A stretch of DNA of 64,000 bases from contig JAFAZK010000280.1 in the NCBI GenBank assembly GCA_019239825.1, positions 12,563-76,562 of the forward strand, written 5' to 3'. The translations under genes were made by a program, and so were the position numbers. Shown piece after piece: positions 37,560 through 55,830 of the stretch (positions are counted from its first letter, which is position 1; each line of letters opens with the position of its first letter). The stretch comes from Verrucomicrobiota bacterium. GTDB lineage: Bacteria > Verrucomicrobiota > Verrucomicrobiia > Chthoniobacterales > JAFAMB01. Below the pieces are notes generated by a model. That model worked only from the letters and a program-made list of their open reading frames with translations. It was not told the origin of the DNA and did not search any database.

Positions 37560-38264
37560 ATGAGGACAGCTGTATTAGCCGCGCTCTCGATTGCAGTCTT
37601 AATGGCGACGGGGAAGATGGCCCCGGCGCAGCAGCCCGTTACTGTTGATATTCCGATTCTGAATCAAACCCTGATCGCATCTAGTAATCAGACGCTTTCT
37701 ATCAACGGGGATGGTAAACCCAGGGTGATTACCGGTGATAATAACAAGATCCAGATTCACGGCGATTGTTCGAGTCTGAAGGTCATAGGTAAAAGCAACA
37801 CGGTTGAAGTGGAACGGGTGGGAGACATCCAGATGATTGGCGCCTCGAACCGGGTATCTTATGTGCGCACGCTTAACGGTGATACCCCGACTATCGCGAA
37901 TATCGGGCAGGATAATGAGGCTAAGCAAGTGGCTGGCCTGGATTCCGCCAATGTGGCGACGCCGGGTCCGTCTGCGGAAGATAGCGGCGATGTGCAGTTG
38001 GTCATCCTGACCAATGATAACCAGACGCGACCGATCAATAAGCCGCACGTCAGATTGGTTGGCAGCAATAACTCTCTCGTGTTTACCGGCGTTGCCCAGG
38101 AACTCGAAATCGACGGATCAAACAACGACGTCGAGATCGATCAGGTCACCAAAGTTATATTCCACGGCTCGAATAATGATGTGACCTACAAGCAATCTCT
38201 AAGCTCGGGAGACGTTGTTTCGGAAGCGCACGGCTCGAATAATGAGGTCGAGAAAGCGGACTAA
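37560..38264 (+). CDS. Secreted DUF3060-like beta-repeat protein (two repeat domains)
   Basis: Signal peptide; repeated ITGDNNKI/VIGKSNTV/IDGSNNDV motifs. Confidence 0.75.
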   Translation: MRTAVLAALSIAVLMATGKMAPAQQPVTVDIPILNQTLIASSNQTLSINGDGKPRVITGDNNKIQIHGDCSSLKVIGKSNTVEVERVGDIQMIGASNRVSYVRTLNGDTPTIANIGQDNEAKQVAGLDSANVATPGPSAEDSGDVQLVILTNDNQTRPINKPHVRLVGSNNSLVFTGVAQELEIDGSNNDVEIDQVTKVIFHGSNNDVTYKQSLSSGDVVSEAHGSNNEVEKAD

Positions 38265-38445
38265 AACCGCGATGGGCGAGAACAATCAGGTGATCACAGC
38301 CGAGCCATAACGGAGCGCGGCCGTGAACGGCGACTAATACTAGACCGGCACGCGGCAGTGGAACAGTTAGGCCCTGGCTGCAATGGCCGAGGTCGCACTA
38401 CTTTCTTCTTTTCTGGCAGCCGAGCTTCGTTGTATACGGTCACAC

Positions 38446-38877
38446 ATGAAGTGTGGCATTTGGCTTGGCATCATAGTAGGCTGCTTCGGGCTGGTTGCCG
38501 TGCCCGCAAAGGCGATCTCTCCGGATCTCTGGCAAAATGACTTGGCCAGAGCGCAAACTTTTTACGTCGGTCCATGGGAAGTCGACCTCCCTCCTTTCTA
38601 TTTCGGTCCGAATGCGAATCAGCGAGAACTCCGGCTGTTGCTTAAACAACCAGACGCGACGGCTCGGATGCGTTGGTTGCTTTCTCACGGAACTCCTGAG
38701 GGCCAGATGTGGGGTTTATACGGATTGCGTCTGCTGCACGACCCGGAATTTGAAGCCTATGCCAGCCGCCTCGAAGAGCAGCCCGGAGAAATCTTAACCA
38801 CTACCGTCGTCCCAGGCTTCCATAAGACGAAAAGTGAAGTCATCGAACGGATTCGTCATAACGATTTTCATTTTTAA
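38446..38877 (+). CDS. Hypothetical secreted protein
   Basis: Signal-peptide-like N-terminus MKCGIWLGIIVGCFGLVAVPAKA; co-oriented between DUF3060-like genes. Confidence 0.6.
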   Translation: MKCGIWLGIIVGCFGLVAVPAKAISPDLWQNDLARAQTFYVGPWEVDLPPFYFGPNANQRELRLLLKQPDATARMRWLLSHGTPEGQMWGLYGLRLLHDPEFEAYASRLEEQPGEILTTTVVPGFHKTKSEVIERIRHNDFHF

Positions 38878-38943
38878 TTGGTTGCAACTTACACCGGCTC
38901 AGGTGTGTAGTTACTGAGAGTTGAACCCCGCTTCTAACTACCT

Positions 38944-39321
38944 ATGAAAAACCTATCAGGAAGATTCCGCTTGTTTATAGCAATGCTCGGCTGTTCAGCA
39001 TCCCTGGCTATTGGACAAAGCGTTGTTCGCGGTACGGACACCGCTCAACAGATCATGGCGTCAAATCAGAAGTTGTCGTTTGACGGCGCTAACAAGACTT
39101 TTCAAATCCTCGGTCATGATGACGAGGTTACGGTCACGGGCGATTGCTTCGCGGTTTCTGTGCTAGGCACCAACAACAAGGTGATCCTCGATGGGGTTGG
39201 CGTCATCCAAGCCGGCGGCAGCGGCAATTTGATTACCTATCGTCGGGGACTGAATGGGGACGCGACCCCTAAAATCGCGACGACTGGCGAGAACAATAAG
39301 GTGGTCGCTACCGGTCAGTAG
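38944..39321 (+). CDS. Secreted DUF3060-like protein (single domain)
   Basis: Paralogous to the first half of 37560-38264 (ASNQ.LS..G, GDC, LNGD.TP.IA..G). Confidence 0.75.
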   Translation: MKNLSGRFRLFIAMLGCSASLAIGQSVVRGTDTAQQIMASNQKLSFDGANKTFQILGHDDEVTVTGDCFAVSVLGTNNKVILDGVGVIQAGGSGNLITYRRGLNGDATPKIATTGENNKVVATGQ

Positions 39322-39423
39322 TGAGAAGTGATTGGTGAGAGGCGACCGGTGCCGCTGAGCTGTGGAGCGCTGCCTCGATTGCGAGGTAACGCTCCACGGA
39401 GCCGGTTCGATTGCCAATCATAT

Positions 39424-39858
39424 TTATCTTGCCGAACCCCGAAGCCGTTTCGCCAGATAGGATCGTTGATGGCCGCGGGGATAGTCTTCCAATGTGCCGA
39501 AGACCTTAAACCCGAGTTTTTCGTAGAATCCGGGTGCCTGATAGTCAAAGGTGTCCAGATAGATCGCATCGCACTCTTGCTCAACGGCCAAGGCTTCTGC
39601 GCGCGCCATTAATTCACGGCCGATCCCTTCTTTTCGGAACTGTCGGTCGACGTAAAGGCTTGAGACAAAGAAATGATTCCAGTGAGTAAAGCCTAACAGT
39701 CCCGCGATGAACTCGCCAGAGTCAGAACGCACGACAATAGCGAATTCCTTCTTGTTTCGCGGCCCTACCTGCGCCTCGTTGTAGGCGATCAAGGGGTCGA
39801 TGATGCTGTAACATTCTTCAGGCGTTGGCTCGGACCGCAAGGTATAGGTAAGTTCCAT
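39424..39858 (-). CDS. GNAT family acetyltransferase
   Basis: LYVDRQFRKEGIGRELM, LDTFDYQAPGFYEKLGF. Confidence 0.88.
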   Translation of the reverse strand: MELTYTLRSEPTPEECYSIIDPLIAYNEAQVGPRNKKEFAIVVRSDSGEFIAGLLGFTHWNHFFVSSLYVDRQFRKEGIGRELMARAEALAVEQECDAIYLDTFDYQAPGFYEKLGFKVFGTLEDYPRGHQRSYLAKRLRGSAR

Positions 39859-40110
39859 TGTTGGTCGCTGGGTCCACAACCCTAGAGAAGACCGCTTTTC
39901 AGATTGGCAGCTTTATCGTCCGGCATCAAGCGCCGGAATTGCCCAGCGGCGATTTACGATCGTCCTCGTATTCGTCGTCGTCCTCGTCCTCGATTTGTTT
40001 TTGGGCGTGTTCACCGGATAGGATTGCTCTCGGAAATATGCACTGGGTAGTTCAGCCTCTCTCCGGTTAGTCGCACCTTTTCGAGGACGAGGACGACGAC
40101 GATCGGTCCC

Positions 40111-43100
40111 CTACACCTCAAACGCCAGGATACGCGGAAGCTCGCCGGGATACGCAAAACATAGCAGCGAATATCCGATCCCGGAGATTCCGCGAAACAG
40201 GCTCGGTGAGAAGCAGAAGTTTTCGCCCACACTCTGTTGAAGACGAAAGAACGCTCCTCGCAGACCGCGTTCGAGAGTTTGCTCGATAAGATTCGCGGCA
40301 CTAGCCTGGAACTCAGGCCGGTTCTCCCGGCTGGCGATATAACTCAGGACCTCGGCAATGCCGAAGTTTCCGCAGCACCAGTGGTCCATGCTGCCTCGCT
40401 GGCGGATCTTTTCAACGACGATATCCAGCTCGTCGCGGGAAAGCTTTTGCGGTGTCTCCACGCCGACCGTGGCTAAAAGAATGCCGGCGGCGCCGTTGCA
40501 CCAGTTATTGAGAGAACCTTGCGGTCCTCTTACTGCGATTGGCCAAGAACTGTTTTTCGGGTCAAAAAAACCTCTCATCAGTTTCAAGGCTCGCTCAACG
40601 AGTTCGTTGAACTGTGGATCACAGAAAGTGCGGCTGTATTCGGTCAAGGCAAAACTGATGCCCGCTAAGCCGTGAGCAAAACCGACATAGGAATCGCCGT
40701 TAGACCTGGTCCAGCCGAGCTCGGGATGGTAACGAGCCGCCAGCATCCGAGCTGCAGCGAGCGCGTTGCCGGCCGCACCGGCGTCTTTTGTGACCTGATA
40801 AAGTCGTGTAAGCGCGACTAACAATCCGGCCACACCCGAGATTATGTCAGGCTCATCCGTTTCAGGCCTTAATTTGACTCTTTTATTCAGCGCTAGAGCC
40901 AGTGCAGTCCAATCACTGTCCTTGGTTAGCCTTCCCAGAACCAAAGCGCCGTAAATCAGAGCCCCGACTCCATTGCAGATACCGGGAGGATAGTCAGCAG
41001 GCGGCTCGAAGACAGCCAGCCTTTCCATGAATCTCGATCCCGGGCGTTTCGGGAAAGCGGATCCTGTTAACTGGTCAACCGCCGCTAGAAAAATGAGCGG
41101 CCCCATATCTCCCAGATAGATCCCTTCGCGGTGAGCAGCGCTGAGATCGCGCGGAAGAAAACTCGGCGGATCCCATAGATACGGGCCATCTGATTTACTG
41201 ATTCGCTGAGTTAATTCGTTAGCAAACTGCTGGACGACTGTTTCGGCCTGCGCGCCGGTTAACGGCTTTTCGATGGTCGCTGGAAAACGTCTGAGGGATT
41301 CCTGGATCACCTCCGTCTGAAAGCGGAAATCGTCTGCTCCCATGGCAGCGATTCGTTCGAAAACGATATCGATCGGTTTCTTTCGAGCCGCGCTGGGCAG
41401 ATGAAAGTTTCGACCAAGTAATTCCGTGCTGTTCAGCCGAATATGGAACCTCGGTATATCCAAGCCGAGCAATGACTGAACCTCGAAATCGATCAGCGTC
41501 TTGGTTTCTGGGGTTAGAGCGTTGTCTCGCAACGGGACACGATAAAGCTGCTCAAAAACGATGCTTTGGCGCACGCCAGAGGTCAGACATTTGGGAGCAC
41601 GTGCTTGCTTCAGCAGGAAACCATAAAGGGTCGTCGGACGGTAAACGAACCTGGTCTTACTTTGGGCAAATTGTTCGATTAACCGGCTAAACTCGGTTTT
41701 CCGATCTGATACGAAATGATAGAGCCGGCCAAAGCCCGTTATGAGTTCGGCTTGGTAACGCCGCACATCCTGGATCTCATTGCCCAAACGGACAGTGTTG
41801 CCGGCATGCCTGGGTGATCGCGGCTTGGTGACTGGCCGCATCTGGTCGGAGTTGAGATTTTCCCAGTCAGTCACGTTTGTGTGTGTTAGGTCCACAAAAC
41901 CGCTGCCCAGGCCGCAATAATCTGCCGGTACATGGGAGGCGCTTAATTGCCAGAAGGGCAACAAACCGGTCTCGATCACTGATGGGTTTCCTAGTTCCAA
42001 GACGTGCGCAGCGCCAGGTGTCGAATCGAACTTCGCGCTTCCACGTCCAGGGTGAAAAAATGATTCCGTGTCGATAGGAACCGGGCGATCGCCGGCAGCG
42101 ATCACATTTTCGAATCCCAGATCACATCCATTCAGCAGATAAGCCAGACAGAGGAGTTCGCCACCGCCCCGGTAATAATGCCGGACATCTTGGGCGTTTT
42201 GACAGGGAGATTGTTCGATAAATTCTTCCCAGCCATATTCCTCACGCTTGATTACTCGCGCCAGGCGCCAAGCCGCGGTGAATCCGACCCCGGCAAGCCA
42301 CCGATCAACTCGAACAAGCGCTTCAGCAATGGAAAGGTCTTTAGGCTTGTATAGCACCTGCTTGCCGTCGTCGAAAATGAGCAAGATCACTTGCTTACCT
42401 CCATCGTGCCGATCCGATATGCCCGTTTTTGTCCGTACTAGTTTTGGCCAGCGATTCTCTGACTGACCCAACGCGATCACTTCAGAAAAGTCAGTTCGGA
42501 GACGCTCCAGGAATAGGTTAGTGGAGTTAGTCCAGGATGTGAGTAAATGGCTGATCTGGCGGGCTAAAACCGGGAATCGTTCAAATAAGATCCGGTACTC
42601 GCTTTGGCGGACGCTTTGGATAAAGGTCTCGAAACTGCCGCCATTCTGCTGATGTTGAGAGAATTGCGCGAAGCTCGGGAAAGAAGCAAGTTCGGAGATT
42701 TCTTGGAGAAGCGAAAGCAGCAAAGAATCGATCGCCGATGCCGTCACGGCGTCGGGTGACAGCGATAAGTTCTGACGAGCGAAAGCGATCAGGGGTAGCC
42801 AGAGAACTGAAAATGGAAATGCTTGGCTCCCCTCCAAATCAACGGGGGGATACTGAAGAGCTTGGTTGAGAACTTCTTCCCATCGATCCCTTTGGGTCAC
42901 CGGTTCTGGCGGCTCGGAGGTGACATAAACGGCCTGCTCTTCGGAAACACCAAGCGATCTCAGGCGAGCAGAAAATCGGTCATAAGTGCCCGTCGTGAAT
43001 ACCTGTTTCCAATCGCGGAAATCGTCTCCGGGTTCCGGAGTTGCCTGGGGTTCGGTAGGCGCTGCGGCTAACCGCTCGTGAAGATAGTGAGCTTGGGCAG

Positions 43101-43125
43101 AGAGGGCAGCTAATGATTTAGACAT
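40111..43125 (-). CDS. lanM: Class II lanthipeptide synthetase
   Basis: Dehydratase motifs DRHDGG, YKPK, GWEEFI, DLGFEN, IDTE, RPTTLY; LanC-like motifs DIISG, GFAHG, WCNG, WCCG, LFRG. Confidence 0.93.
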   Translation of the reverse strand: MSKSLAALSAQAHYLHERLAAAPTEPQATPEPGDDFRDWKQVFTTGTYDRFSARLRSLGVSEEQAVYVTSEPPEPVTQRDRWEEVLNQALQYPPVDLEGSQAFPFSVLWLPLIAFARQNLSLSPDAVTASAIDSLLLSLLQEISELASFPSFAQFSQHQQNGGSFETFIQSVRQSEYRILFERFPVLARQISHLLTSWTNSTNLFLERLRTDFSEVIALGQSENRWPKLVRTKTGISDRHDGGKQVILLIFDDGKQVLYKPKDLSIAEALVRVDRWLAGVGFTAAWRLARVIKREEYGWEEFIEQSPCQNAQDVRHYYRGGGELLCLAYLLNGCDLGFENVIAAGDRPVPIDTESFFHPGRGSAKFDSTPGAAHVLELGNPSVIETGLLPFWQLSASHVPADYCGLGSGFVDLTHTNVTDWENLNSDQMRPVTKPRSPRHAGNTVRLGNEIQDVRRYQAELITGFGRLYHFVSDRKTEFSRLIEQFAQSKTRFVYRPTTLYGFLLKQARAPKCLTSGVRQSIVFEQLYRVPLRDNALTPETKTLIDFEVQSLLGLDIPRFHIRLNSTELLGRNFHLPSAARKKPIDIVFERIAAMGADDFRFQTEVIQESLRRFPATIEKPLTGAQAETVVQQFANELTQRISKSDGPYLWDPPSFLPRDLSAAHREGIYLGDMGPLIFLAAVDQLTGSAFPKRPGSRFMERLAVFEPPADYPPGICNGVGALIYGALVLGRLTKDSDWTALALALNKRVKLRPETDEPDIISGVAGLLVALTRLYQVTKDAGAAGNALAAARMLAARYHPELGWTRSNGDSYVGFAHGLAGISFALTEYSRTFCDPQFNELVERALKLMRGFFDPKNSSWPIAVRGPQGSLNNWCNGAAGILLATVGVETPQKLSRDELDIVVEKIRQRGSMDHWCCGNFGIAEVLSYIASRENRPEFQASAANLIEQTLERGLRGAFFRLQQSVGENFCFSPSLFRGISGIGYSLLCFAYPGELPRILAFEV

Positions 43126-43129
43126 AAAT

Positions 43130-43155
43130 AGCCGCCATCGGAACCGATGGCGGCT
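43130..43155 (-). terminator. GC-rich hairpin between precursor genes and lanM
   Basis: agccgccatcgg-aa-ccgatggcggct followed on the minus strand by ATTT and the lanM ATG. Confidence 0.65.
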
Positions 43156-43198
43156 TCAAAAATGCTTCGTCCTAGCAAATAAGTGCTATCGGCGCGGC

Positions 43199-43333
43199 TT
43201 AGGCGATGTTGACCGTGCTCAACACGTTGGAGCAGCTGACGCTCTGAATAGAGGTGGTATCGTTGATGCCGCCGGCAACGTCTTCGAGTTGTTCGTCGCT
43301 AATGGATTCTGGTTTGTTGGTTTCTTCGCTCAT
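43199..43333 (-). CDS. Double-glycine RiPP precursor A3 (44 aa)
   Basis: Hand translation MSEETNKPESISDEQLEDVAGG/INDTTSIQSVSCSNVLSTVNIA. Confidence 0.92.
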   Translation of the reverse strand: MSEETNKPESISDEQLEDVAGGINDTTSIQSVSCSNVLSTVNIA

Positions 43334-43399
43334 ATTATCCGTAGGTTTATGGTTCTCGTTTGTTAAGTCGGAATTGGCCGGCTTTTCTCTGGCGCGGCT

Positions 43400-43534
43400 T
43401 TAGGCGATGTTGATCGTGCTCAACACGTTGGAGCAGCTAACGCTCTGAATAGAGGTGGTATCATTGATGCCGCCGGCAACGTCTTCGAGTTGTTCGTCGC
43501 TGACCTGTTCTGGTTTGTTGGTTTCTTCGCTCAT
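43400..43534 (-). CDS. Double-glycine RiPP precursor A2 (44 aa)
   Basis: Hand translation MSEETNKPEQVSDEQLEDVAGG/INDTTSIQSVSCSNVLSTINIA. Confidence 0.92.
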   Translation of the reverse strand: MSEETNKPEQVSDEQLEDVAGGINDTTSIQSVSCSNVLSTINIA

Positions 43535-43603
43535 ATTAAATCGGTTTGTCCGGTTTTGGGTTTCTTTTAGGATCGGAGTTCGCCCATTCTTCCTGTGCCA
43601 GAC

Positions 43604-43738
43604 TTAGGCGATGTTGACCGTGCTCAACACGTTGGAACAGCTAACGCTCTGAATAGAGGTGGTATCGTTGATGCCGCCGGCTACATCCTCGAGTTGCTCA
43701 TCACTGATCGATTCTGGTTTGTTGGTATCTTCGCTCAT
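43604..43738 (-). CDS. Double-glycine RiPP precursor A1 (44 aa)
   Basis: Hand translation MSEDTNKPESISDEQLEDVAGG/INDTTSIQSVSCSNVLSTVNIA. Confidence 0.92.
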   Translation of the reverse strand: MSEDTNKPESISDEQLEDVAGGINDTTSIQSVSCSNVLSTVNIA

Positions 43739-43800
43739 ATGGTTGGGTGTACGGTTGGTTTGGTTTCTGGTTGTGGTTCTCGAATGCCGCGCTCGAGAGT

Positions 43801-44115
43801 TTAGAGGCTGGAATCCGGGCCTAAGAACGTGTTGTTCTCAGCGCTTAAGAATCCGCCCGCTATTGTTTCAAGCTCGGCGTCCGAAAGGTTTGCATTCTGG
43901 TCCGGGAAATCCTTTGGCAAGACGATGTACATCAGATCGTCTGTCTCTTGCAGGAGTACTACCTTCAGCCGATCCGGTAATGTGGTGCCTAGTGCTCGCT
44001 CGACGGCGAACTTTGGGTTCGCTAGCAAGGATTCCCGAAACGCCTCATCTTTCAAGGCCGCCCTTACGAGTACCTCTTTGACGTCTTTTCGTGAGATATT
44101 CGAGTTGGAATCCAT
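43801..44115 (-). CDS. NHLP (nitrile hydratase-like leader) family precursor
   Basis: RAALKDEAFRESLLANPK...VLP...LSDAELETIAGG then a 16-aa core FLSAENNTFLGPDSSL. Confidence 0.9.
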   Translation of the reverse strand: MDSNSNISRKDVKEVLVRAALKDEAFRESLLANPKFAVERALGTTLPDRLKVVLLQETDDLMYIVLPKDFPDQNANLSDAELETIAGGFLSAENNTFLGPDSSL

Positions 44116-44172
44116 TTCTACTCTTTGTCTCCGGTGTGCCCGACATCCACTTCCGTGTCCGCCGAGCTATTT

Positions 44173-44188
44173 AGCAATGGGTGTGCCA
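44173..44188 (-). promoter_or_regulatory. Sigma54 (-24/-12) promoter for the precursor-lanM operon
   Basis: Minus strand TGGCACACCCATTGCT matches TGGCAC-N5-TTGCW, 57 nt upstream of the NHLP ATG. Confidence 0.85.
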
Positions 44189-44271
44189 TAACTACGTCTG
44201 TTGATTCAAGTATCTGGGATATGGTCAGTTGCATACATTTAGCCATTTTAGCTTCCTGACTGAACAACCCA

Positions 44272-44316
44272 AAAATGGAACTCCGATTCTCGAAAATGGA
44301 ACGACAGCTCCATTTT
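44272..44316. promoter_or_regulatory. Candidate bEBP upstream activator sequence
   Basis: AAAATGGA-N8-TCCATTTT palindrome (44293-44316) plus a direct AAAATGGAAC repeat 21 bp away (44272). Confidence 0.55.
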
Positions 44317-44335
44317 AGGTTCGCGGTCCGCTGTT

Positions 44336-45499
44336 TCACTCCTCTGGCTTCAGGCGATGGTGCCGCAGAAAATCCATGAACTTTTGATAGTGTTCCGGCC
44401 TGATATTGAGTAGGACACTCATCCGGCGATAACTGCCTCTGGCTGCTAACAGTCCCTGGGAGATTATCTCGCGGACCTGAGCTCGATTTAAGTCGCGGTC
44501 GAGAAAAGGCTCATGAACGACGTCCCAAAACGACCTCCCCTGCTCGACCATATCCTCGAATAGTTCATTCTTGCCGGTGCCCGGACCAGGTAAACTTGCT
44601 TGGCGAAGCTCGCTGACAAAATGATCTGGCTCTATGTACTTTGATTCCGCCATGGAGAAGCCGATCGTGACGATGCTCCGGAGCTCCCGAACATTGCCCG
44701 GCCAGGGGTATCGCTCTAGAAACTTGATCGATGTAGGCGAGAATGCCTTCTTGAGGTTGTATTCCTGATTCAGCTTATCGACAAAATAACTAATTAATAG
44801 TTTCCAATCCTCATCGCGTTCCCGCAAAGCTGGGATATCCAAGGGAAAATAGCGGAGGCGGAAATAAAGATCTTGGCGAAAATGACCGGTGGCGATCATA
44901 TCGCGCAGCGGTCTGTTAGTGGCTGCTATTACCCGAACATCCACCGAATAGGTTTTGGTCGAGCCCAACGGTTTAACTTCCTTTTCCGCGAGTGCTCGCA
45001 GCAACATGGTCTGAGCAGTGGGAGGAAGATCACCGACTTCATCCAGGAAAACGGCGCCTCTGTCCGCCGCATCAAATAGACCTTTATGATCAGCGATGGC
45101 GCCGGTAAAGCTGCCTTTAACGTGCCCGAATAGTTCGCTAACGGTTACGTTGCCTTCGCTGTATTGTGGGCAATTGACCACCACAAAAGGCTCGCTAATG
45201 CGCGAGCTCATCAGATGGCAGGCTTTAGCAAATAACTCTTTGCCTACACCACTCTCGCCTGTGATCAGGATGGTTTGATTGAATTTGGCGAACTTTTGAA
45301 CTTTGTCTAAAGTGTCTCGCATTTTCGAACTGACACCGACTAGATCAACCGCTTGCTTTATTCCCCATTTCTCTAGGGACTTGACGCGGACCTGGAAGGC
45401 CACATCCGTCATGGTTTTGTCAGTTTCGCGGCTAACTTTCGTAGACGGAAACGGAACCACGTTAGCGGTACTATCGCTCTCCATAAATGCAAGACACAC
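44336..45499 (-). CDS. Sigma54-dependent activator (bEBP) without a recognisable sensor domain
   Basis: [45 protein letters not shown]; only about 50 aa precede the AAA+ domain. Confidence 0.9.
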   Translation of the reverse strand: MCLAFMESDSTANVVPFPSTKVSRETDKTMTDVAFQVRVKSLEKWGIKQAVDLVGVSSKMRDTLDKVQKFAKFNQTILITGESGVGKELFAKACHLMSSRISEPFVVVNCPQYSEGNVTVSELFGHVKGSFTGAIADHKGLFDAADRGAVFLDEVGDLPPTAQTMLLRALAEKEVKPLGSTKTYSVDVRVIAATNRPLRDMIATGHFRQDLYFRLRYFPLDIPALRERDEDWKLLISYFVDKLNQEYNLKKAFSPTSIKFLERYPWPGNVRELRSIVTIGFSMAESKYIEPDHFVSELRQASLPGPGTGKNELFEDMVEQGRSFWDVVHEPFLDRDLNRAQVREIISQGLLAARGSYRRMSVLLNIRPEHYQKFMDFLRHHRLKPEE

Positions 45500-45666: not shown

Positions 45667-48618
45667 TCAGGCTAGTTGTCGTCTGGCGAGGTCGGCGAAT
45701 GGTCCCGCCTGATTCATCAACTCAGTGTAAGTCCCGGTCTGTGCGAGTTCACCATTTTGCAGCACGAATATTCGATCCGCATTGATGATCGTGCTCAACC
45801 GGTGCGCGATGACGATTCGGGTCGCCTGCATCGCGTCCAAACTTTCCGTGACTTTTCTTTGGGTTTCATTGTCCATGGCGCTGGTCGCTTCGTCAAAAAA
45901 GACAATGCGGGGCCGGTTTACCAGCGCTCGGGCAACCATTAGCCTCTGGCGCTGCCCCCCGGAAAAGGTGCCGCCTCCCTCCGAGACCACGGTGTGCATG
46001 CCCATGGGCATATTCTTGATGTCCCGGTCTAGACCAGCCATTCTCGCTGCTTCCCAAGCGTCGTTCACGCTTAGGTTGGTATGTGAACCGATAATGTTCC
46101 GATAAATGTCGGTGGGCATCAGCCGGCTGGATTGCAGGACAACGCCGATCTGCTGGCGAACTTCGCGGATATCCAAAGAAGACATTTCCTGGCCGTCGTA
46201 AAAAATTGCGCCTGATTCGGGTTTTTCGAAGCCAAGGAATAACCGCAAGAGCGTCGACTTGCCCGAACCTGATCCTCCAACTAGAGCCACGAACTCGCCA
46301 GGCCTGATGCGCAGCGAGATATCTTTCAAAATCAATGGTGCATCCTGGTTGTATCGGAACGAAAGGTGGTAAACCTCCAACTCACCGCTCAACTCGCCGG
46401 GGTGGGCTTTTGCCTCATCGATTTCGGGTTGGGCTTCGATAACGGGCCGAAGCCGCTGGAACAAAGGTAAGATCATTAAAAGATCCAACACGACCGTACT
46501 CAGTGACAACATGCTTGAGAGGACGTTGGTAAATACTCCGTTAAACGCCACGAATTGGCCGGTGGTCATGTTGAATTTCTCTTGTCCCTGCGCAGCCTGA
46601 TCCTTGAACCAGCCATATAAAAGGAATAGCAGAGCCGTCGCGATCACGGGATAAACCCGGCTGAAAACTTGAACGATATTCCCGAGAAATTCGACTCGGA
46701 AGGCCAGCCTTTTCTGAGTCGAGAACTTCCTGGTCCATTCCCGGAACGCAGAATCTTCGGCGCCGGACACTCGGATTTTCGCAACCCCGTTTATCAGCTG
46801 CAGAACCAAGCCTGTAATTAATCCTCGGATGCGGAACATCTGCCGCTGGTTCGTCAGCTGCATCAAGTTGATGCAGAGCGGTAAGATCACGGAGAAACCG
46901 ATAAGACCGAACGCCGCCCAGGCCATCTTGGCGTTGAACGTAAAAAGGAAGATGCCGGTTATCAATGTGCTGATAGCACCGACGATGGCTTGAGTACCGG
47001 ATTGAGAAATAGCCTGCCGAATCTGTTCGACTCCCAATGCCCGGTCTGTGAGGTCACCTGAGGTATAGTCGCGAAAGAATTGAGATGGCAGGTTGAGTAG
47101 ACGGTCCCAGACGCCTGCTTGTACGGAATAATCCATTTTGCCGGTCAGGCGGAGGACGGCGATCGAACGAGTTAGTTCGAAAGCGAATGTGCCTAAGGCG
47201 GCCGCGAAAAGCCCAACGGCAAATTGAGCCAGTTGACTGCGATCGGCAGCGGGAATAACGCTGTCGATGATCTGACCGCTGAAGTACGGCGTTACCATTC
47301 CCAAAAACCCAACTAACACTCCCATCAGGCTGATGGTGCGCAGATCGGCGTGACAAGTCCGCATGCCGAATTTAATCAGGTCCCAAGCACCAAGCCGCCT
47401 TTCCGGTAGAGGCGTATATAAAGAAACGGCGAAGGGCGACAGAGTGGCAGCGCTTGAAGCAGTAACCACAACGCGTTCCACCGTGCGTGGGTCCGCTAAC
47501 TCATACGTCGTGTGTCCGGTTTTCAAAATCGCGACTGGCTCGAGGGTGCCCTCGCGAAACGCTAGCAATGGGCCATGATCGACTTCCCACCACTCGCCTC
47601 GGAGCGCTATGGTGCGGTACCGGAACCGGGAAGCCTTTGCGATCGCTGCGAGTTTATCGCTGACTTGAAAAAGATCGGCTGGGACCTTGACCTGAATGCC
47701 GGATGCCTCTCCTACGAGCCGGCAAGCGATGACCAGGGGATTGCCGGAAGGGTCGGCGAGCAGGCCGGCCGTCTGGAGTTCGCGACGAGTCGCCAGCACG
47801 GAGGCGATTTCGCGCAGAGCGGTATCGCGCGACCGCAAACCGGACGCCTCTCGCGCACGCAAGCGATTAAAATCATCAACAATTCTGAGCTTCTTATTGA
47901 TGAACTCGCATTGGCACAACACCTCGTGGAATAGCCCAAGGCCGATCCAGAAAGTAGGTTGGGTGATGCTGGCAGGAGAGGAAAAACATGACAGCAGGTT
48001 ATCGTCATAAGATTCGATCCATGTGTCCGAAGACAGAGGAAGGATAGGAACCCCTTCACCGGATAAAGAGACTCCTTCCATACCCATGTAAAGCGCTTCT
48101 CCGCGCAGGACCTGTATCCACACGATCCCGCGGCGCGCTCGAGCGATCTTGCCGCGAGGCAGTAACACTTGCTTACCGCCGACGAGAACCTCATCCGCTT
48201 TTGGTAGTGGCCTCGTATCGCGCGAGACACTGGCAGAAAGCTGTTCGAGCCAGTGATCGATGAGTTGGCTGAGAGTAGCAGCGTATTCGTGATCGCGTGC
48301 CAGCCGTCTCAGATCATCTTGACGCAGCCCGACCAGCTCCGAGCCTTCGCGACCGGTGAGCAAAAAACAGTAACCGTGCGCTTGCTTGTTAAAGTCCATC
48401 CCGAAAATCAAGGAACCTGGCTCCAGCGAAAGGAAGTGTGACCGCGGGCCGGTAGCTTCGCCGGCTTCGAGCTGCACGGTGAAAATTTCAATCCGGCCCG
48501 TGGCGATAAACCAGACGTTCTCAGATCCTTCAACGACGAAAGATTGGTTCAACCGGAGGACCTGTAGTTCACCGGATTGAATGAGAGCGTTACTAAGAGC
48601 TGCTGAAATGGCCGGCAT
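45667..48618 (-). CDS. NHLP/NHLM-type ABC transporter, permease/ATPase (no active peptidase)
   Basis: Long N-terminal region, TM domain, GGSGSGKST, FSGGQRQR, DEATS. Confidence 0.9.
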   Translation of the reverse strand: MPAISAALSNALIQSGELQVLRLNQSFVVEGSENVWFIATGRIEIFTVQLEAGEATGPRSHFLSLEPGSLIFGMDFNKQAHGYCFLLTGREGSELVGLRQDDLRRLARDHEYAATLSQLIDHWLEQLSASVSRDTRPLPKADEVLVGGKQVLLPRGKIARARRGIVWIQVLRGEALYMGMEGVSLSGEGVPILPLSSDTWIESYDDNLLSCFSSPASITQPTFWIGLGLFHEVLCQCEFINKKLRIVDDFNRLRAREASGLRSRDTALREIASVLATRRELQTAGLLADPSGNPLVIACRLVGEASGIQVKVPADLFQVSDKLAAIAKASRFRYRTIALRGEWWEVDHGPLLAFREGTLEPVAILKTGHTTYELADPRTVERVVVTASSAATLSPFAVSLYTPLPERRLGAWDLIKFGMRTCHADLRTISLMGVLVGFLGMVTPYFSGQIIDSVIPAADRSQLAQFAVGLFAAALGTFAFELTRSIAVLRLTGKMDYSVQAGVWDRLLNLPSQFFRDYTSGDLTDRALGVEQIRQAISQSGTQAIVGAISTLITGIFLFTFNAKMAWAAFGLIGFSVILPLCINLMQLTNQRQMFRIRGLITGLVLQLINGVAKIRVSGAEDSAFREWTRKFSTQKRLAFRVEFLGNIVQVFSRVYPVIATALLFLLYGWFKDQAAQGQEKFNMTTGQFVAFNGVFTNVLSSMLSLSTVVLDLLMILPLFQRLRPVIEAQPEIDEAKAHPGELSGELEVYHLSFRYNQDAPLILKDISLRIRPGEFVALVGGSGSGKSTLLRLFLGFEKPESGAIFYDGQEMSSLDIREVRQQIGVVLQSSRLMPTDIYRNIIGSHTNLSVNDAWEAARMAGLDRDIKNMPMGMHTVVSEGGGTFSGGQRQRLMVARALVNRPRIVFFDEATSAMDNETQRKVTESLDAMQATRIVIAHRLSTIINADRIFVLQNGELAQTGTYTELMNQAGPFADLARRQLA

Positions 48619-48824: not shown

Positions 48825-51008
48825 CTAGTGGCTTATCAATTTCGAGTACGGTCCTCCTGCGTTTTTCATCGATTCATGAGTTCCTCGTTCCGCCACTTTC
48901 CCGTATTCCAAGACGATGATTTCGTCGCAGTCCCGGATACTACTCAGCCGATGCGCCACAATTAAACAAGAGCAACCGCGACGCCGCAGATTTTGATCGA
49001 TCTGTTCCTCGGTGCTCGGATCCAAAGCGCTGGTGGCCTCGTCCAGGATCAACAAACTCGGCGAGTTGACCAACGAACGCGCAATCTCCAGGCGTTGACG
49101 TTGTCCCCCCGAAAAGTTAACCCCACCTTCAGAGACTTGGCTGGACAGACCGCCTTGACGGGAAGCGACTACATCGGCGATGGCTGCATCCTTGCAGGCT
49201 TGTGTGATGTGCAAATCTGGTATCCCGGTGTCCCACATGGTAAGGTTGTCTCGAACCGTGCCTTCGAACATAAAAATATCCTGATCGACCATCGCGATCG
49301 AATTATGCAAAAGGCGTGGCGGGATTTTGTCTCGAGGGACACCGTCCAAGAGTATCTCTCCGCTCCAGGGCTTAAAAAGCCCGGCAACAATCTTGGAAAC
49401 CGTAGACTTACCACTCCCACTTCCACCAACTAGCGCTACCCGATGCCCTGGCCGAATACTGAAGCTGAGGTCCGCAATCAGCGGCGGCGCCAGCGGATTG
49501 AAACCGAAGGTCAGATTGCGCACATCGAGCTGACCGCTGAGCTTAATCGTCGCGTCAAACCGCGGGTCGACTGACTGTTCTTGGAGATACGCCGAGTCTA
49601 TTTCGTAGCGCAGAACATCATCCAAACGATTCAAATCGGAACCGGTCTCTTGTAACACGTTACCAAAGGTTACAAAAGAGGTAATCGGCTTGGTAAATCC
49701 GTCCATCAGCGACTGGAAAGCAACCAGCAAACCGATAGTTAGATGCCCGTCCATGACCCGCCAGCCGCCTAACCCGAGGATCGTGGCAGTGATCAGGGCC
49801 TTGGTAAACGGCGGAACGGCGGAGAGACTTTGACCATAAAAATCCATCTCTTGTTCGGCCTGAATGGTCTTGGCTTGATAGCCTCCCCAACGGGCAAAAA
49901 ACTCGTTCTCGCCGCCTGTCGCTTTGAGAGTTTCGATCATCTGCACGCCGTTCATCGAAGTACCCATTAGTTTTCCGCGCTCTTGCAGAAGCCGGAAACT
50001 CGCGTCAACTCTCGGGCGTTGAACCAGTTTGACGCCGAGGAGGTTGAGCATGGCCAAAGAGACGCACGCCAGGGTGAGCCAGACATCGTATTGAAACATT
50101 ACCAGGGCGAAAAACAGGAGCGCCATCAGGTCAAGAGCCGTGGTTACCATTTTGTCGGACAGCACCTTGGCCACTTTGTCATTGATCAGCACCCGCGAAC
50201 CGATCTCACCCGCATAACGCTGGGAGAAAAACTCCATCGGCAGCCGGATAACATGGGTAAAAAATTTAGCGGATGTGGTTAATGCCAGCTTGGTCTCCAG
50301 TCGCAAAAGGAAGTGCCTCTGCAAGGCGACAAGGAAGAGCATGAAAAGAATCGAGACCCCCATGGTCGAAAGCAGGGGACGCAAAATGTCAGTTTTATCG
50401 CCGATGAGAAATTCATCGATAAAAACGCGCGTGAACGAAGGGTTAACAATGTTGGGGATGATCAGCAGCAGCCCCGTCAACAACGCGTAACTCAACCCGA
50501 TCTCGAAACCAGAAACCCGCCGGCGCAATGCTGCTGCGAGACTCGGCTTTTCTCCGCCCGGAGTAAAACTCGGACCTGGCTGAATAGTTAGGACAACGCC
50601 GGTGAAAGAAGCCTCGAGCTCTTCGAGCGCAACTCTGCGCGGTCCAGTCGCAGGATCATTAAGATAAACCTTACCCTCGGCGACCCCTTCATATACCAAA
50701 AAATGATTGAAATTCCAATAGAGGATCACCGGCGGCTTCATCTTCAGCAGAGCCTCTAGCTCGCAGCGGATACCCTGACTCACCATCCCGTACCGGCGGG
50801 CCGCTTTGAGTAGATTACTCGCCTTACTACCATCCCGGCCGACACCGCATTCCAGTCGGAGTTGTTCCAGCGGAATCCAGAGATTGTGATAGCGAAAAAT
50901 GACGCCCAGGGCGGCTGCTCCGCATTCCACCGCCTCCATCTGCAACAAGGTTGGGGTGATCACTCGATCCGGAAGCCGCTCTTCCGCTGGCAGACTGGGT
51001 ACGCTCAT
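48825..51008 (-). CDS. NHLP/NHLM-type ABC transporter with C39 peptidase
   Basis: QMEAVECGAA (Cys), WNFNHF (His), LNDPA (Asp); TM domain; GGSGSGKST. Confidence 0.93.
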   Translation of the reverse strand: MSVPSLPAEERLPDRVITPTLLQMEAVECGAAALGVIFRYHNLWIPLEQLRLECGVGRDGSKASNLLKAARRYGMVSQGIRCELEALLKMKPPVILYWNFNHFLVYEGVAEGKVYLNDPATGPRRVALEELEASFTGVVLTIQPGPSFTPGGEKPSLAAALRRRVSGFEIGLSYALLTGLLLIIPNIVNPSFTRVFIDEFLIGDKTDILRPLLSTMGVSILFMLFLVALQRHFLLRLETKLALTTSAKFFTHVIRLPMEFFSQRYAGEIGSRVLINDKVAKVLSDKMVTTALDLMALLFFALVMFQYDVWLTLACVSLAMLNLLGVKLVQRPRVDASFRLLQERGKLMGTSMNGVQMIETLKATGGENEFFARWGGYQAKTIQAEQEMDFYGQSLSAVPPFTKALITATILGLGGWRVMDGHLTIGLLVAFQSLMDGFTKPITSFVTFGNVLQETGSDLNRLDDVLRYEIDSAYLQEQSVDPRFDATIKLSGQLDVRNLTFGFNPLAPPLIADLSFSIRPGHRVALVGGSGSGKSTVSKIVAGLFKPWSGEILLDGVPRDKIPPRLLHNSIAMVDQDIFMFEGTVRDNLTMWDTGIPDLHITQACKDAAIADVVASRQGGLSSQVSEGGVNFSGGQRQRLEIARSLVNSPSLLILDEATSALDPSTEEQIDQNLRRRGCSCLIVAHRLSSIRDCDEIIVLEYGKVAERGTHESMKNAGGPYSKLISH

Positions 51009-52324
51009 TAATTCTTGATTCCCAGGATCTCTTTGATTTTTGGAATGACGAACTCGACCGGGGGCTTACGCTCAACCACGATGGATGCTTGGGCTAACGT
51101 GCCGCTGAAAATACCCGTAGGCGGGCCCTGTGACGAAGACCATTTGTAGCCGCTCTTGGTTGTCGGATCAGGATACAGTTCGGCGGTTACTTCAATGGGC
51201 GCACCTTTTGACGTGAGGTCCTTAACTAGTTCGTCGTTTCGCAAAACGACTTTCATCCCGTCCGGCGTACTTGGAAAATAGGAGACACTCGAAACCTTTC
51301 CCAGGATGAAACCGTACTCCTCCGCTTTCACCGTCGAAGGCGAAATCTGGATCTCCTGACCCGTTATTACCTTTTTGCCTTGTCCGGCCGGCACGTAGAT
51401 CACCGCCTCCATCTTGGCGTCTTCCGCCTCCACCGTAATGATCCTGTCCTTGGAGCTGACGGGAGATCCTCTTTCCACTAACTTTTCAATGACCCGGCCG
51501 CTGTAGCGGCAGATGACCTTAGTGCCGGCGTCTTTCTCTTCCCGGAGTTGGTTCAAGTCCAGGGCGCTTTGATTAATTTCTTTGAGACGCGCGTTTCGCT
51601 GGGTTTGAGTTTCCCGGACCAGTTTAATCTCGCTGGTCCGGATCTCGCTCATCTTTACTTGGGTATCGGCCGCTTGTAATTGCACCGCATAAAGAGCGTC
51701 TCTGGCTTTGTTGACCGAAGCCTGAGTAGTCAACCCTTTCTGGAGAAGGTTTGATTGGTTGTCGAATTCGGTTTGGTCAGCGTCAATTTGCACTTTATAA
51801 CTCTTTTGGGCCGCCTCCATCGCCTTCTCTTCCTTCTCGTAGTCGGTAATCGCAGCGTTATCGCTTTTGGTTTCACGGGCGGTCATATCGGCATCTTGCG
51901 CCTGCAAAAGTTTGAGCTGCGCTTCCTGGGTCCTGATCTTTAACTCCAATTCTGACTGGCTCATCGTAGCCACGATCTGGCCGGTCGTAACTTCGTCACC
52001 AGGTTTGACCAGGACTTGGGTAACAAACCCGTCATTAGCGGCAGCCACGTCGTAGACAGCGCCTCCCCGAATCAGAATTCCACTTCCGCTAACCGTGTCC
52101 GGAATTCGCCCCAGAAAACCCCAGAGCAGGATCAGAAACAGGATTAGACCTAAGGCCGAGACCGCCAGCCAGCCGGCCGGCGAGGTAATCGACATTAAGT
52201 AATCAAGTTGCTCGGGGGAGGAGAGGCGCTCCAAAGCGGCTCTCCGAAAGATGCTCCGTTCGGTGGCGCCGTTGCTACTGGTGCCATGGTGGCCGGCCTG
52301 AGATGTATTTGATGTTTGGCTCAT
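51008..52324 (-). CDS. NHLM-type HlyD family secretion protein
   Basis: IFRRAALERLSSPEQLD, EEYGFILG, YKWSSSQGP; TAATG coupling to the transporter. Confidence 0.92.
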   Translation of the reverse strand: MSQTSNTSQAGHHGTSSNGATERSIFRRAALERLSSPEQLDYLMSITSPAGWLAVSALGLILFLILLWGFLGRIPDTVSGSGILIRGGAVYDVAAANDGFVTQVLVKPGDEVTTGQIVATMSQSELELKIRTQEAQLKLLQAQDADMTARETKSDNAAITDYEKEEKAMEAAQKSYKVQIDADQTEFDNQSNLLQKGLTTQASVNKARDALYAVQLQAADTQVKMSEIRTSEIKLVRETQTQRNARLKEINQSALDLNQLREEKDAGTKVICRYSGRVIEKLVERGSPVSSKDRIITVEAEDAKMEAVIYVPAGQGKKVITGQEIQISPSTVKAEEYGFILGKVSSVSYFPSTPDGMKVVLRNDELVKDLTSKGAPIEVTAELYPDPTTKSGYKWSSSQGPPTGIFSGTLAQASIVVERKPPVEFVIPKIKEILGIKN

Positions 52325-54317
52325 AGTTCCGGTCCTTCAAAACGGGGCCCACCGGTTCTCTCACATCTGGAACTGTCTCGAAAGCTTGCTCGGTTATATT
52401 CGCTTGTTCGACTGCTTTCGGAAATCCGGGGACCCGCAGCGCGGTCTCTTGCGACAGCAGGGTCGCAGTTTCATATCTCAAGTCGACAATAGCGTTGGCC
52501 AGAGCTAAGCGAAAATCGACCAACTGAGTTTCCGCGGTCGTCAGTTGCTCTTCCGACTGGATAGTCTCGAACATGGTGGTTGCACCTCGGCGAAACTTTT
52601 CCCGCATGTCGTTAAAGGACTTTCTGAACGCAATCACCGCATCATGCTGAGTCTCGACGTCCGAACCCAGTTCTTGAATGGTGTCCGCACTCGCGGTCAC
52701 GCTTGCGGCGATTGTAGTAGAAAGATCCTCCATCTGAATGATAGCTTGGTTCAGGTCGGATTGGGCCAGCACTACACCCCCCTTGGAACTGTTGTTGGCA
52801 AACGGCCAAGCTAACTGCGCTCCAAGCGATAAATCCAAACCGAGCTTGGTGCCTCGCTGGCTCTGGCCACTTGAGCTCGTTATCTTTTCGTTGTTGATGT
52901 CAGTCCCGATTCCGGTGGTTAGACTCGGGTATATAATGAGATCTTCCTTCGCTTTGGCTAAGCTCACCTGTTTTGACCTGATTGTCTGCAAGGCAGCAGC
53001 TCGATCGAGCCTCCGAGCCAGAGCCTCATCCACCAAAGCATCGGTGTTCAAGATTCTCGGCTGATGCTCGCTGACATCGGGGAAAGATTGAAATGCGAGC
53101 GGCAACCGGTGCAGTTGATCAGTTCTCAGACCGATGGTGATCGCCAGTTTCTTGGCAGCATCATAAACGGAAACTAATGCCTGTGTCCGTTGCGCGAATG
53201 ACTGCGAACGACGGCCCTCGGCCAGCGTGACTTCACTGTAAGGAACTCCGCCTCCCTCCGCCATCTGCTTAGATAAATCCTCAAGAATAGAGTCAACCCG
53301 ATAGGCGCGATCTTGCAGCGCAAATTTCTGCAAAGCGGATACCATTCCCCAGTACGCCTGGGCCGTGTCTGAGGCCGTCTTCTGAGCCTGGTTCCGTAAC
53401 GTTAGTAACCTGCCTTCGTAATCGATGCGTGCCTCAATCTCTTCTGCGTCGTTGTACAGGACGCCAGCTTTCTTGAAGACCGGGATGTTAGCGGTCATCA
53501 CAATTCGGTTCGTAGTCGGAGGGTATTTGTTGTTACCGGCCTGATCCACCCAGATCGGTTGATACAAAATAGACATGTCAATCCCGTTTCGAAATTTTTT
53601 GCTCAGTGAAACTTCCGTATCGATCGAGTCCGTCGCCTTTAGTTCCTGGCTCTGAACCGCTTGGGTAATTGCGCTGTTGATAGTCGAACTGCTGGCCGGG
53701 ATGCCAACGGAACGAAAGATGGAGGGCAGCGCCGAGCTTAGCACTTGCTGATTCGCGTCCAGAGAGGTATTGCTGGCTTCCGCTGGAATCGAGTGGGCGT
53801 ATTTAGCAATTAATAGTGCCGTAGTGTCGAAGTCGCCTACCTTTTGTTGAAGTTTGCCTTTCGCCGATTGCGAGTCTTCGGAAGATAGTCGCAAGTCTTT
53901 GTTTTGAACGAGTGCGATTCTCACTGCGTCGAGCAACGAAAGAGAGAACAGACCTGGCGGCGTGAGTTCAGTTAATGAGAGCGCGGATTCGAATTTCTGA
54001 TCAAACTCCTCTGCCTGCTGTTGCGTGATTCCGCCGACTACCTCACCTGTTCCGCCTGGACCGGTCGGGCTCGGCGATGGTAGTTGCCCAGGTGGGATCA
54101 ACGGCTTTATCTCATTGCGGTTACCTCCATGCTGCGGAAGTTCAATGGGTGCGCTTGAGGTTGGTGTGGGCGACGGTATCGCCGGTGGAACTGCCGGCGT
54201 AGTTTGAGCTTGCCCGGCAACTAAGAGGGTTGTTTCAAAGCCGATCAAACCGGCAATGCTTAACAAACTGAAGCGCAAAACATCCAACTTCGTCCTGCGA
54301 TAATGAAGAGATTCCAT
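52275..54317 (-). CDS. TolC-family outer membrane efflux protein
   Basis: LSLLDAVRIALVQN, two OEP-like repeats, first gene of the export operon. Confidence 0.82.
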   Translation of the reverse strand: MESLHYRRTKLDVLRFSLLSIAGLIGFETTLLVAGQAQTTPAVPPAIPSPTPTSSAPIELPQHGGNRNEIKPLIPPGQLPSPSPTGPGGTGEVVGGITQQQAEEFDQKFESALSLTELTPPGLFSLSLLDAVRIALVQNKDLRLSSEDSQSAKGKLQQKVGDFDTTALLIAKYAHSIPAEASNTSLDANQQVLSSALPSIFRSVGIPASSSTINSAITQAVQSQELKATDSIDTEVSLSKKFRNGIDMSILYQPIWVDQAGNNKYPPTTNRIVMTANIPVFKKAGVLYNDAEEIEARIDYEGRLLTLRNQAQKTASDTAQAYWGMVSALQKFALQDRAYRVDSILEDLSKQMAEGGGVPYSEVTLAEGRRSQSFAQRTQALVSVYDAAKKLAITIGLRTDQLHRLPLAFQSFPDVSEHQPRILNTDALVDEALARRLDRAAALQTIRSKQVSLAKAKEDLIIYPSLTTGIGTDINNEKITSSSGQSQRGTKLGLDLSLGAQLAWPFANNSSKGGVVLAQSDLNQAIIQMEDLSTTIAASVTASADTIQELGSDVETQHDAVIAFRKSFNDMREKFRRGATTMFETIQSEEQLTTAETQLVDFRLALANAIVDLRYETATLLSQETALRVPGFPKAVEQANITEQAFETVPDVREPVGPVLKDRNYEPNIKYISGRPPWHQ

Positions 54318-55803: not shown

Positions 55804-55830
55804 AAAACGATGATCGCAAAGCCGGATTTC

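Follow-up and report, generated by a model that had tools for sequence, protein, structure and literature searches.

Three short open reading frames (ORFs) lie in tandem on the minus strand at positions 43199 to 43738 of the window, which is the whole 64,000-nucleotide stretch analysed here, taken from contig JAFAZK010000280.1 of a Verrucomicrobiota bacterium in the order Chthoniobacterales (GenBank assembly GCA_019239825.1). These ORFs are very probably the precursor genes (lanA) of a class II lanthipeptide operon: a gene for the synthetase LanM is adjacent, and the cores of the predicted peptides carry residues capable of forming thioethers. We also regard it as highly likely that they are genuine translated paralogues, lanA1 to lanA3, and that the operon is driven by sigma-54. 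All neighbouring genes of the lanA copies are on the minus strand, and the locus reads, in order, exporter, sigma-54 activator, putative activator sites and sigma-54 promoter, a precursor gene of the NHLP family, three lanA genes, a hairpin and LanM. The genome of the window is designated G000 (assembly of 6.67 Mb, with a completeness of 95.8% and contamination of 8.1%), and the related genomes compared with it are G002, G003, G004, G005, G007 and G024.

Three probable lanA genes in tandem, under purifying selection

A preliminary description, made from the letters of the window only, had proposed three 135-nucleotide tandem ORFs at intervals of 201 and 204 nucleotides. Both the ORFs and the intervals, which a repeat finder returns when measured from start to start, are borne out. 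Each ORF begins with ATG and encodes 44 amino acids on the minus strand (copy 1, 43604-43738; copy 2, 43400-43534; copy 3, 43199-43333). As described, every precursor consists of a 22-amino-acid leader ending in SDEQLEDVAGG and a 22-amino-acid core, INDTTSIQSVSCSNVLST[V/I]NIA, and the cores are identical but for V19I, with Ile confined to the middle copy. Each core contains a single Cys and eight Ser or Thr residues. The leader of copy 1 carries E4D, and that of copy 2 carries S10Q and I11V. According to the repeat finder, the three copies form a single family with a unit of 139 nucleotides, two of them being 94% and 91% identical to the reference, and the conserved block extends from 4 nucleotides 5' of the ATG to the stop codon. 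When each gene is aligned together with its upstream spacer, conserved spacer columns are few, in agreement with the claim that the spacers are unrelated. The ORFs are shorter than a 60-amino-acid ORF cut-off; they are recovered at a minimum of 20 amino acids and not at a minimum of 80. Genome-wide, the lanA peptide matches only these three copies in G000.

The pattern of substitutions among copies is that of protein-coding genes whose products are conserved. Between the outer copies, the method of Nei and Gojobori gives 10 synonymous differences and one non-synonymous difference (E4D) over 27.3 synonymous and 104.7 non-synonymous sites, which reproduces the earlier tally and corresponds to a dN/dS of 0.019 (binomial P=1.3e-6 for so few non-synonymous changes). 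The other two pairs in G000 have synonymous/non-synonymous counts of 8/5 and 3.5/4.5 by the same method. In G000, 12 of 16 variable sites fall on codon position 3; for the arrays of G000, G004 and G005 together, the figure is 39 of 46. Within arrays, synonymous to non-synonymous variable sites number 11:5 in G000 (binomial P 4.5e-5) and 7:3 in G004 (P 1.1e-3). The four G005 copies, all with one identical core, differ at 20 synonymous sites and one non-synonymous site (P 6.7e-13). Judged from its sequence, the G005 array is an independent replicate of the signal and, because of its 20:1 ratio, purifying selection on the lanA ORFs can be called well supported. Frameshifts or stops in homologous loci would speak against translation, and none was found, the sense frame being intact in 20 of 20 copies from seven genomes. 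The site ratios and intact frames thus support the proposal that these are translated genes under purifying selection. Pure gene conversion was rejected as the cause of the similarity between copies, since it would not deplete non-synonymous changes; it is also contradicted by the comparison of G000 copy 3 with copies 2 and 3 of G004, which shows just two synonymous differences across species.

The repeats might instead represent an RNA element or an ORF on the opposite strand, but we consider either extremely improbable. An antisense frame that shares the wobble position is open in 18 of the 20 copies, although openness does not discriminate between strands, and plus-strand ORFs of 49, 50 and 140 amino acids overlap the copies. 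However, these plus-strand ORFs extend into unconserved spacers and differ in length, and both G024 copies contain a stop in that frame. The conserved block spans the sense ATG (from -4 nucleotides) to the sense stop in all copies, and the sense strand and order fit the operon. No Rfam family is matched at threshold, the best E-value being 0.34.

LanM, its putative substrates and proposed control of the operon

The gene that starts 73 nucleotides downstream of copy 3 encodes LanM, a class II lanthipeptide synthetase of 1004 amino acids (40111-43125, minus strand). It has dehydratase and cyclase domains (DUF4135 and LANC_like) and scores 572.8 bits on TIGR03897, for which the cut-off is 304. 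Only one LanM gene occurs in G000. Its motifs are GFAHGLAG, NWCNGAA and HWCCGNF, the last being of the CCG type described for ProcM-like enzymes (PMC10783134). Identity to the G000 enzyme is 82% in G004, whose lanA cores are the same, and in loci with other cores it is 53% (G003), 52% (G002), 36% (G005), 35% (G007) and 32% (G024). For the same six relatives, identity is 65-96% for the activator and 63-94% for the NHLP gene. On these comparisons, LanM identity follows the core type of the short precursors and not the NHLP gene. Separately, a stand-alone LanC-like ORF of 439 amino acids lies on contig C309 of G000 (39219-40286, minus strand); its match to the LanM model is limited to the cyclase part and, at 153.9 bits, is below the cut-off.

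A simple rule emerges from the cores of the wider family. Of 228 candidates in a profile search, 125 proteins had E<=0.001, and the family counts given here are from the 120 that were listed, whose source names are "hypothetical protein" or absent. Some database relatives carry a precomputed PF28158 label, a model that turned up in no paper, and the best ESM Atlas scores, 0.83-0.86, are below the level that counts. The leader motif is present in 119 of the 120 listed relatives; among these 119, the core has one Cys in 110, none in six and two in three. There are at least 69 distinct cores, 61 of 69 with Asp at core position 3, and cores thus compared are highly variable between lineages behind a conserved leader. 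We assembled 62 distinct single-Cys cores of 15-26 amino acids from the database and the loci, and all 62 have Ser or Thr at six or seven residues after the Cys. Two of the 62 have no Ser or Thr N-terminal of the Cys, which leaves this pair as their only possible ring. A single C-terminal ring between Cys and the residue at +6 or +7 is therefore the only ring that fits the whole family, and it suggests a Cys12-Thr18 ring in the window peptides.

The lanA leader follows the double-glycine pattern, with G21-G22 at positions -2/-1, V19 at -4, L16 at -7 and I11 at -12. Across 18 aligned sequences, M1, D13-E17, A20-G22 and the Leu at -7 are invariant, position -4 is Val or Ile, and position -12 is Ile or Val. 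PMC12537861 describes the pattern recognised by C39 peptidases as GG at -2/-1 and hydrophobic residues at -4, -7 and -12. A C39 peptidase-ABC exporter (ABC1) is encoded in the cluster at 48825-51008 (minus strand), with a score of 1040 bits on TIGR03796 (cut-off 853) and a Peptidase_C39 match at 1e-31. Its N-terminus contains ECG and NHF motifs, which we take to supply the catalytic Cys and His. The remaining exporter genes, all on the minus strand, encode an NHLP bacteriocin export ABC permease/ATPase (ABC2; 45667-48618; TIGR03797, 900 bits, cut-off 709), a HlyD-type adaptor of the NHLP bacteriocin system (51008-52324; TIGR03794, 333 bits, cut-off 156) and a TolC-like outer-membrane channel with OEP domains (52275-54317). 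The NHLM-type exporter set is complete and above curated cut-offs. ABC2 has about 290 N-terminal residues beyond the TIGR03797 match, and none of the Pfam matches listed at E<=0.01 is located there.

Upstream of copy 1 is a gene for an NHLP-leader precursor of 104 amino acids (43801-44115, minus strand; TIGR03793, 70.9 bits, cut-off 50.9), the only NHLP gene in G000. Its leader ends in ETIAGG and is followed by a 16-amino-acid core; Cys is absent from the NHLP core of G000 and of each of the six relatives. These cores begin with FL or FF after the GG and are otherwise loosely conserved. None of the three short precursors, with leaders of 22 amino acids, matches the NHLP leader model TIGR03793, a fold of some 75 residues related to nitrile hydratase alpha.

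Several elements with characteristics of gene control precede or interrupt the operon. A sigma-54 promoter-like element, TGGCAC-N5-TTGCT, is at 44173-44188 (minus strand), 72 nucleotides before the NHLP ATG, and its exact form occurs once in the window. In seven of seven loci, an element scoring 9-10 of 10 precedes the NHLP ATG, at a distance of 70-74 nucleotides in six of them and 55 nucleotides in the locus designated L026. Farther upstream (44243-44316, minus strand) are inverted repeats, AAAATGGAG-N6-TTCCATTTT, with further half-sites; the inverted repeat is present in all members of the genus about 200 nucleotides before the ATG, and G007 and G024 have related TGGAG/CTCCA palindromes. The repeats are likely to be binding sites for the activator, whose candidate gene (44336-45499, minus strand, start codon uncertain) encodes an AAA+ domain with its lid but lacks a receiver domain. 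A hairpin with an 11-bp GC-rich stem and a T-rich tail (43130-43155, minus strand) separates copy 3 from lanM and is likely to be a terminator or attenuator. The stem is identical in G004 despite different flanks, and G002, G003 and G005 carry strong hairpins in the same place, all with U-tracts but of differing sequence, for a total of five of seven loci. A scan for sigma-70 promoters and terminators was overall not above shuffled sequences, and only this conserved hairpin was kept.

The spacer that would form the 5' UTR of copy 3 (43334-43399, minus strand) is rich in A and C, poor in G and devoid of a Shine-Dalgarno-like motif, features shared by the spacers at 43535-43603 and 43739-43800. 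Averaged over 20 lanA genes, the A+C content of the 40 nucleotides upstream is 0.77; for comparison, 36 long ORFs from the window give 0.50 (sd 0.10). Few genes in either group have a Shine-Dalgarno-like 4-mer there (2 of 20 lanA genes and 5 of 36 long ORFs).

G003 has a second sigma-54 element, 108 nucleotides before its extra lanA group. Its locus (L022, 7798-8525 and 8902-9479) thus contains two units of sigma-54 promoter and palindrome, one for three lanA genes, including a divergent core, and the other for the NHLP gene and one lanA.

In the mechanism that we propose, the sigma-54 promoter, served by the upstream activator, would drive one transcript containing the Cys-less NHLP gene, three lanA genes each behind its A/C-rich, G-poor stretch, the hairpin and lanM. 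The strong hairpin would stop most transcripts before lanM, and the several lanA copies ahead of this terminator could raise the supply of precursor relative to enzyme. LanM would dehydrate Thr18, and perhaps other Ser or Thr residues, and then link Cys12 to Thr18, so as to form one (methyl)lanthionine ring, presumably in the C-terminal half. Cleavage after Gly-Gly would be the task of the C39 peptidase-ABC exporter, and the 22-residue product would leave through HlyD and TolC.

Several observations weigh against this interpretation. When one mismatch is allowed, the sigma-54 pattern has two matches in the window, compared with 3.8 expected by chance; because this tolerant pattern does not exceed chance, it is the conserved position of the element that argues for a promoter. 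No Pfam family matches the lanA peptides, even at E<=10, and the sole NCBIfam match is to NF038167 (CTB family bacteriocin), at 23.5 bits with a cut-off of 32 and over the leader only (profile positions 1-28 of 72). By analogy, it is not a given that a 22-amino-acid leader serves a LanM in an NHLP/NHLM context, because DprM, the one NHLP-associated LanM studied in detail (PMC12537861), loses activity on removal of the NHLP fold; a Cys-less precursor was left unmodified in that system. A predicted complex of LanM residues 1-650 with the precursor scored 0.41, and the best of three controls scored 0.00. Contacts are shared between runs to at least 38%, and the partner has a pLDDT of at least 37. 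Of 80 solved complexes, 58 reached the mark used for such predictions, as did 2 of 110 mismatched pairs; passing scores of 0.60 or less came from just 7 of the 80 solved complexes and from both passing mismatches. The prediction passes only weakly and lends weak support to binding. What the sequences show directly is the ORFs, the selection on them, their genomic context, its conservation among relatives and the mosaic ancestry; ring position, cleavage, export, attenuation and a dosage role are inferred.

Transcript data offer qualified support. A run search listed 20 holders of such sequences, three of which are RNA libraries (soil metatranscriptomes from three studies), and the RNA contigs were compared over 41500-44700. 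They match close relatives of the locus, containing either a full lanA or the junction of the NHLP gene and a lanA leader. Run X20 has a 229-nucleotide contig at depth 21.5 with a whole gene resembling copy 3 (two differences) that continues into the start of the next copy, and runs X7 and X9 have junction contigs. Such sequences occur in RNA libraries, although assembled contigs carry neither strand nor level, and carry-over of DNA is possible. The RNA contigs do not reach lanM and, as assembled contigs, are uninformative on attenuation.

Alternatively, the short peptides could be bacteriocins or pheromones of the double-glycine (class II) type that leave unmodified through the C39 exporter, with LanM acting elsewhere. 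The leader is of a generic double-glycine kind, as the weak NF038167 match illustrates, the core has a single Cys, and an NHLP-type precursor, which is the usual partner of such exporters, is in the same operon. However, that precursor lacks a core Cys in G000 and six relatives, and no other candidate substrate of LanM was found genome-wide. Moreover, in comparison with G002 the NHLP protein is 94% identical and LanM 52%, so that the enzyme tracks the short-precursor core, and a Cys spaced from Ser or Thr as the ring would require is universal among the 62 cores. The complex prediction, for its part, weakly favours LanM binding. We therefore assign this explanation little probability, and continue to treat the three ORFs as lanA genes.

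Copy number and mosaic ancestry

At E<=1, the lanA peptide is present in 11 of the 61 genomes searched, G000 included. The genus of G000 is represented by five further genomes, of which four have the peptide and the fifth, with no match, is 89% complete. Intact lanA genes number three each in the related loci of G004 and G007, four each in G003 and G005, two in G024 and one in G002. The order exporter, activator, NHLP, lanA and LanM is kept in all six relatives to the limits of their contigs, with the exception that three of the four lanA copies of G003 are upstream of the NHLP gene. G004 shares both the core and the 201/204-nucleotide spacing of G000.

Comparison with G004 and G002 reveals that the locus is a mosaic. 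HlyD, ABC1 and ABC2 of G000 have nucleotide identities of 0.84-0.90 to G004 and 0.73-0.76 to G002. The relation is reversed for the activator, the NHLP gene, the spacer between NHLP and lanA1, and the leader of copy 1 (0.55-0.88 to G004, 0.90-0.95 to G002), and it reverts for the copy 1 core and LanM (0.83-0.93 to G004, 0.49-0.61 to G002). Copy 1 therefore combines a G002-like leader, which is 3 nucleotides from that of G002 and 9-10 from those of its own paralogues, with a G004-like core. A blastn alignment of G000 with G002 extends from the activator and breaks off precisely at 43672, where the copy 1 core has its first base; beyond this, only weak similarity returns, inside lanM. The metatranscriptome runs X7 and X9, which belong to different studies, each have a contig that follows G000 (43672-43853 with no differences in one, 43672-43974 with three differences in the other) and switches to other sequence at 43672. 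The 30-letter consensus after the switch, reverse-complemented by hand, agrees in 29 of 30 letters with the core region of G002 (L025). A DNA contig from run X1 has a similar switch at 43468, the leader/core boundary of copy 2. By these alignments, copy 1 is a recombinant with its breakpoint exactly at the leader/core boundary, and the mosaic and the contig switches therefore indicate that segments comprising core and LanM are exchanged at this boundary.

The divergence of the copies can be set against that of the rest of the locus. Between G000 and G004, background dS is 0.5-0.8 for HlyD, ABC1, ABC2 and LanM, 1.5 for NHLP and 2.9 for the activator, and the spacers between copies are 45-61% identical, which is roughly neutral, whereas the coding regions are 90-98% identical. 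Compared position by position, the copies of the two genomes have synonymous divergences of 0.58 (copy 1), 0.24 (copy 2) and 0.077 (copy 3); among paralogues the values are 0.14-0.50. Copy 3 differs from copies 2 and 3 of G004 by three nucleotides; two of the differences are synonymous, where about 10 synonymous differences would be expected (L021, 10666-11004; P 3.7e-4). Because similarity between species cannot stem from exchange inside one genome, the synonymous sites of copies 2 and 3 may be constrained or may have been shared more recently. Since the G002-like leader accounts for 8 of the 10 synonymous differences that separate the outer copies, most of the divergence between these copies was brought in by recombination. 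Such imported divergence still reflects selection on the peptide, to judge from the sequences.

These results bear on the preliminary proposal that the copies are amplified for dosage rather than diversified, in a manner opposite to that of prochlorosins, and support it only in part. In its favour, three of the six multi-copy arrays have homogeneous cores (G000, G004 and G005), although the contrast with prochlorosins holds only within some genomes. Weighing against a dosage role, the other three arrays are mixed (G003, 3+1; G007, 2+1; G024, two cores, one without Cys), G002 has a single copy, and the V/I variant is in a different copy in G000 and G004. The proposal is weakened further in that most of the outer-copy divergence was imported and did not accumulate in place. 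As for the contrast with prochlorosins, cores do vary between lineages, and LanM carries the CCG motif. Dosage nevertheless remains a plausible role for the copies.

Copy number might also have no dosage function, and simply result from unequal crossing-over between leader/core repeats, with copies that are harmless or mildly useful. Copy number does range from 1 to 4 among close relatives, and the locus is recombinogenic, with mosaic modules and a breakpoint at the leader/core boundary. In addition, paralogue dS does not exceed the G000-G004 background despite the array layout shared by these genomes, which points to exchange between copies. On the other hand, every copy examined is intact, and the depletion of non-synonymous changes in each array implies selection on each of the copies. 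The arrangement of three copies and its intervals were retained while the spacers of G000 and G004 diverged to about 45-61% identity, and each copy has its own A/C-rich upstream stretch. We consider a functionless copy number rather unlikely, though worth retaining beside the dosage reading.

More speculatively, the locus could be a modular cassette system, in which the conserved 22-amino-acid leader serves as a recombination handle and core-plus-LanM segments are swapped between Chthoniobacterales lineages while the exporter and sigma-54 module persists. LanM would then be matched to its core and not promiscuous, and the Cys-less NHLP peptide would be a partner and not a substrate, either a second component that is co-exported or an NHLP fold that aids LanM in trans on precursors with minimal leaders. 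This is a tentative idea that we hold with low confidence.

Neighbouring genes and related systems

A GNAT acetyltransferase gene (39424-39879, minus strand) with only generic family matches begins 231 nucleotides after lanM. It is kept after lanM in G000 and G002-G005, with two copies in G005, and is absent from this place in G007. Given this absence and the generic matches, the gene was left out of the lanthipeptide system; it could encode a tailoring enzyme or be an unrelated neighbour. Beyond it, on the plus strand at 37560-39321, a 164-amino-acid ORF with no family match lies between two DUF3060 proteins. This trio is present in G002, G003 and G004, and in the stretch of G005 that was compared, just the DUF3060 ORF adjacent to the GNAT gene is matched. 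A protein encoded at 32912-34204 (minus strand), with DACNV sensor and DisA-type nucleotide-binding domains, is possibly a relative of diadenylate cyclases. On the other side of the locus, past the exporter genes, the plus strand encodes a STAS-domain protein (54453-55217) and a second sigma-54 activator (55810-57165), which has a receiver domain and an HTH_8 domain.

The closest precedent is ruminococcin A of Ruminococcus gnavus, where three tandem structural genes for one product, rumA1A2A3, reside beside rumM and have been read as gene multiplication (PMC6071512). Ruminococcin A comes from a Firmicute, with three rings and three Cys in its core, and its cluster includes immunity genes as well as a two-component regulator, whereas the Verrucomicrobiota locus has one Cys per core, a diderm TolC route, sigma-54 elements, an NHLP peptide presumably on the same transcript and one V/I core difference. 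A class III lanthipeptide cluster with thirteen identical precursor genes (PMC7268733) is alike in having many identical precursors and different in enzyme class and phylum.

The Dpr system, in which a LanM with a three-Cys zinc site acts on NHLP-leader precursors (PMC12537861), resembles the locus and its predicted product in several respects: at most one Cys per core, a single methyllanthionine ring, two precursors with an identical core, a Cys-less peptide (DprE6) that is left unmodified, a C39-ABC export partner and the hydrophobic leader residues at -4, -7 and -12. All Dpr precursors, however, have the full NHLP fold, and truncation abolishes activity, while the Cys-bearing precursors of the window have a 22-amino-acid leader only and its sole NHLP peptide is Cys-less.

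Prochlorosins and ProcM share with this family the CCG zinc-site motif in the cyclase domain (PMC10783134) and, family-wide, conserved leaders before variable cores. They differ in their Nif11-type leaders and in that one promiscuous enzyme acts on many cores per genome; here there are 1-4 mostly identical cores per genome, and LanM changes with core type. G000 itself has just three near-identical cores, with neither a Nif11 nor an NHLP leader, and its peptides are not of the prochlorosin type.

We found no publication on this family in searches on Verrucomicrobia, Chthoniobacter or sigma-54 lanthipeptides, although supplementary precursor lists may hold it. A multi-copy arrangement in itself has precedents and would not surprise specialists. 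The features of more interest are the Cys-(+6/+7) rule, the short-leader precursors beside a Cys-less NHLP gene, the apparent sigma-54 control and the exchange of cassettes. The analysis adds an uncharacterised lanthipeptide family from uncultured soil Verrucomicrobiota, with a simple and testable rule of one Cys and a Ser or Thr six or seven residues downstream. It also offers a clear natural example of recombination at the leader/core boundary with LanM changing along with the core, which may be useful for leader-guided peptide engineering.

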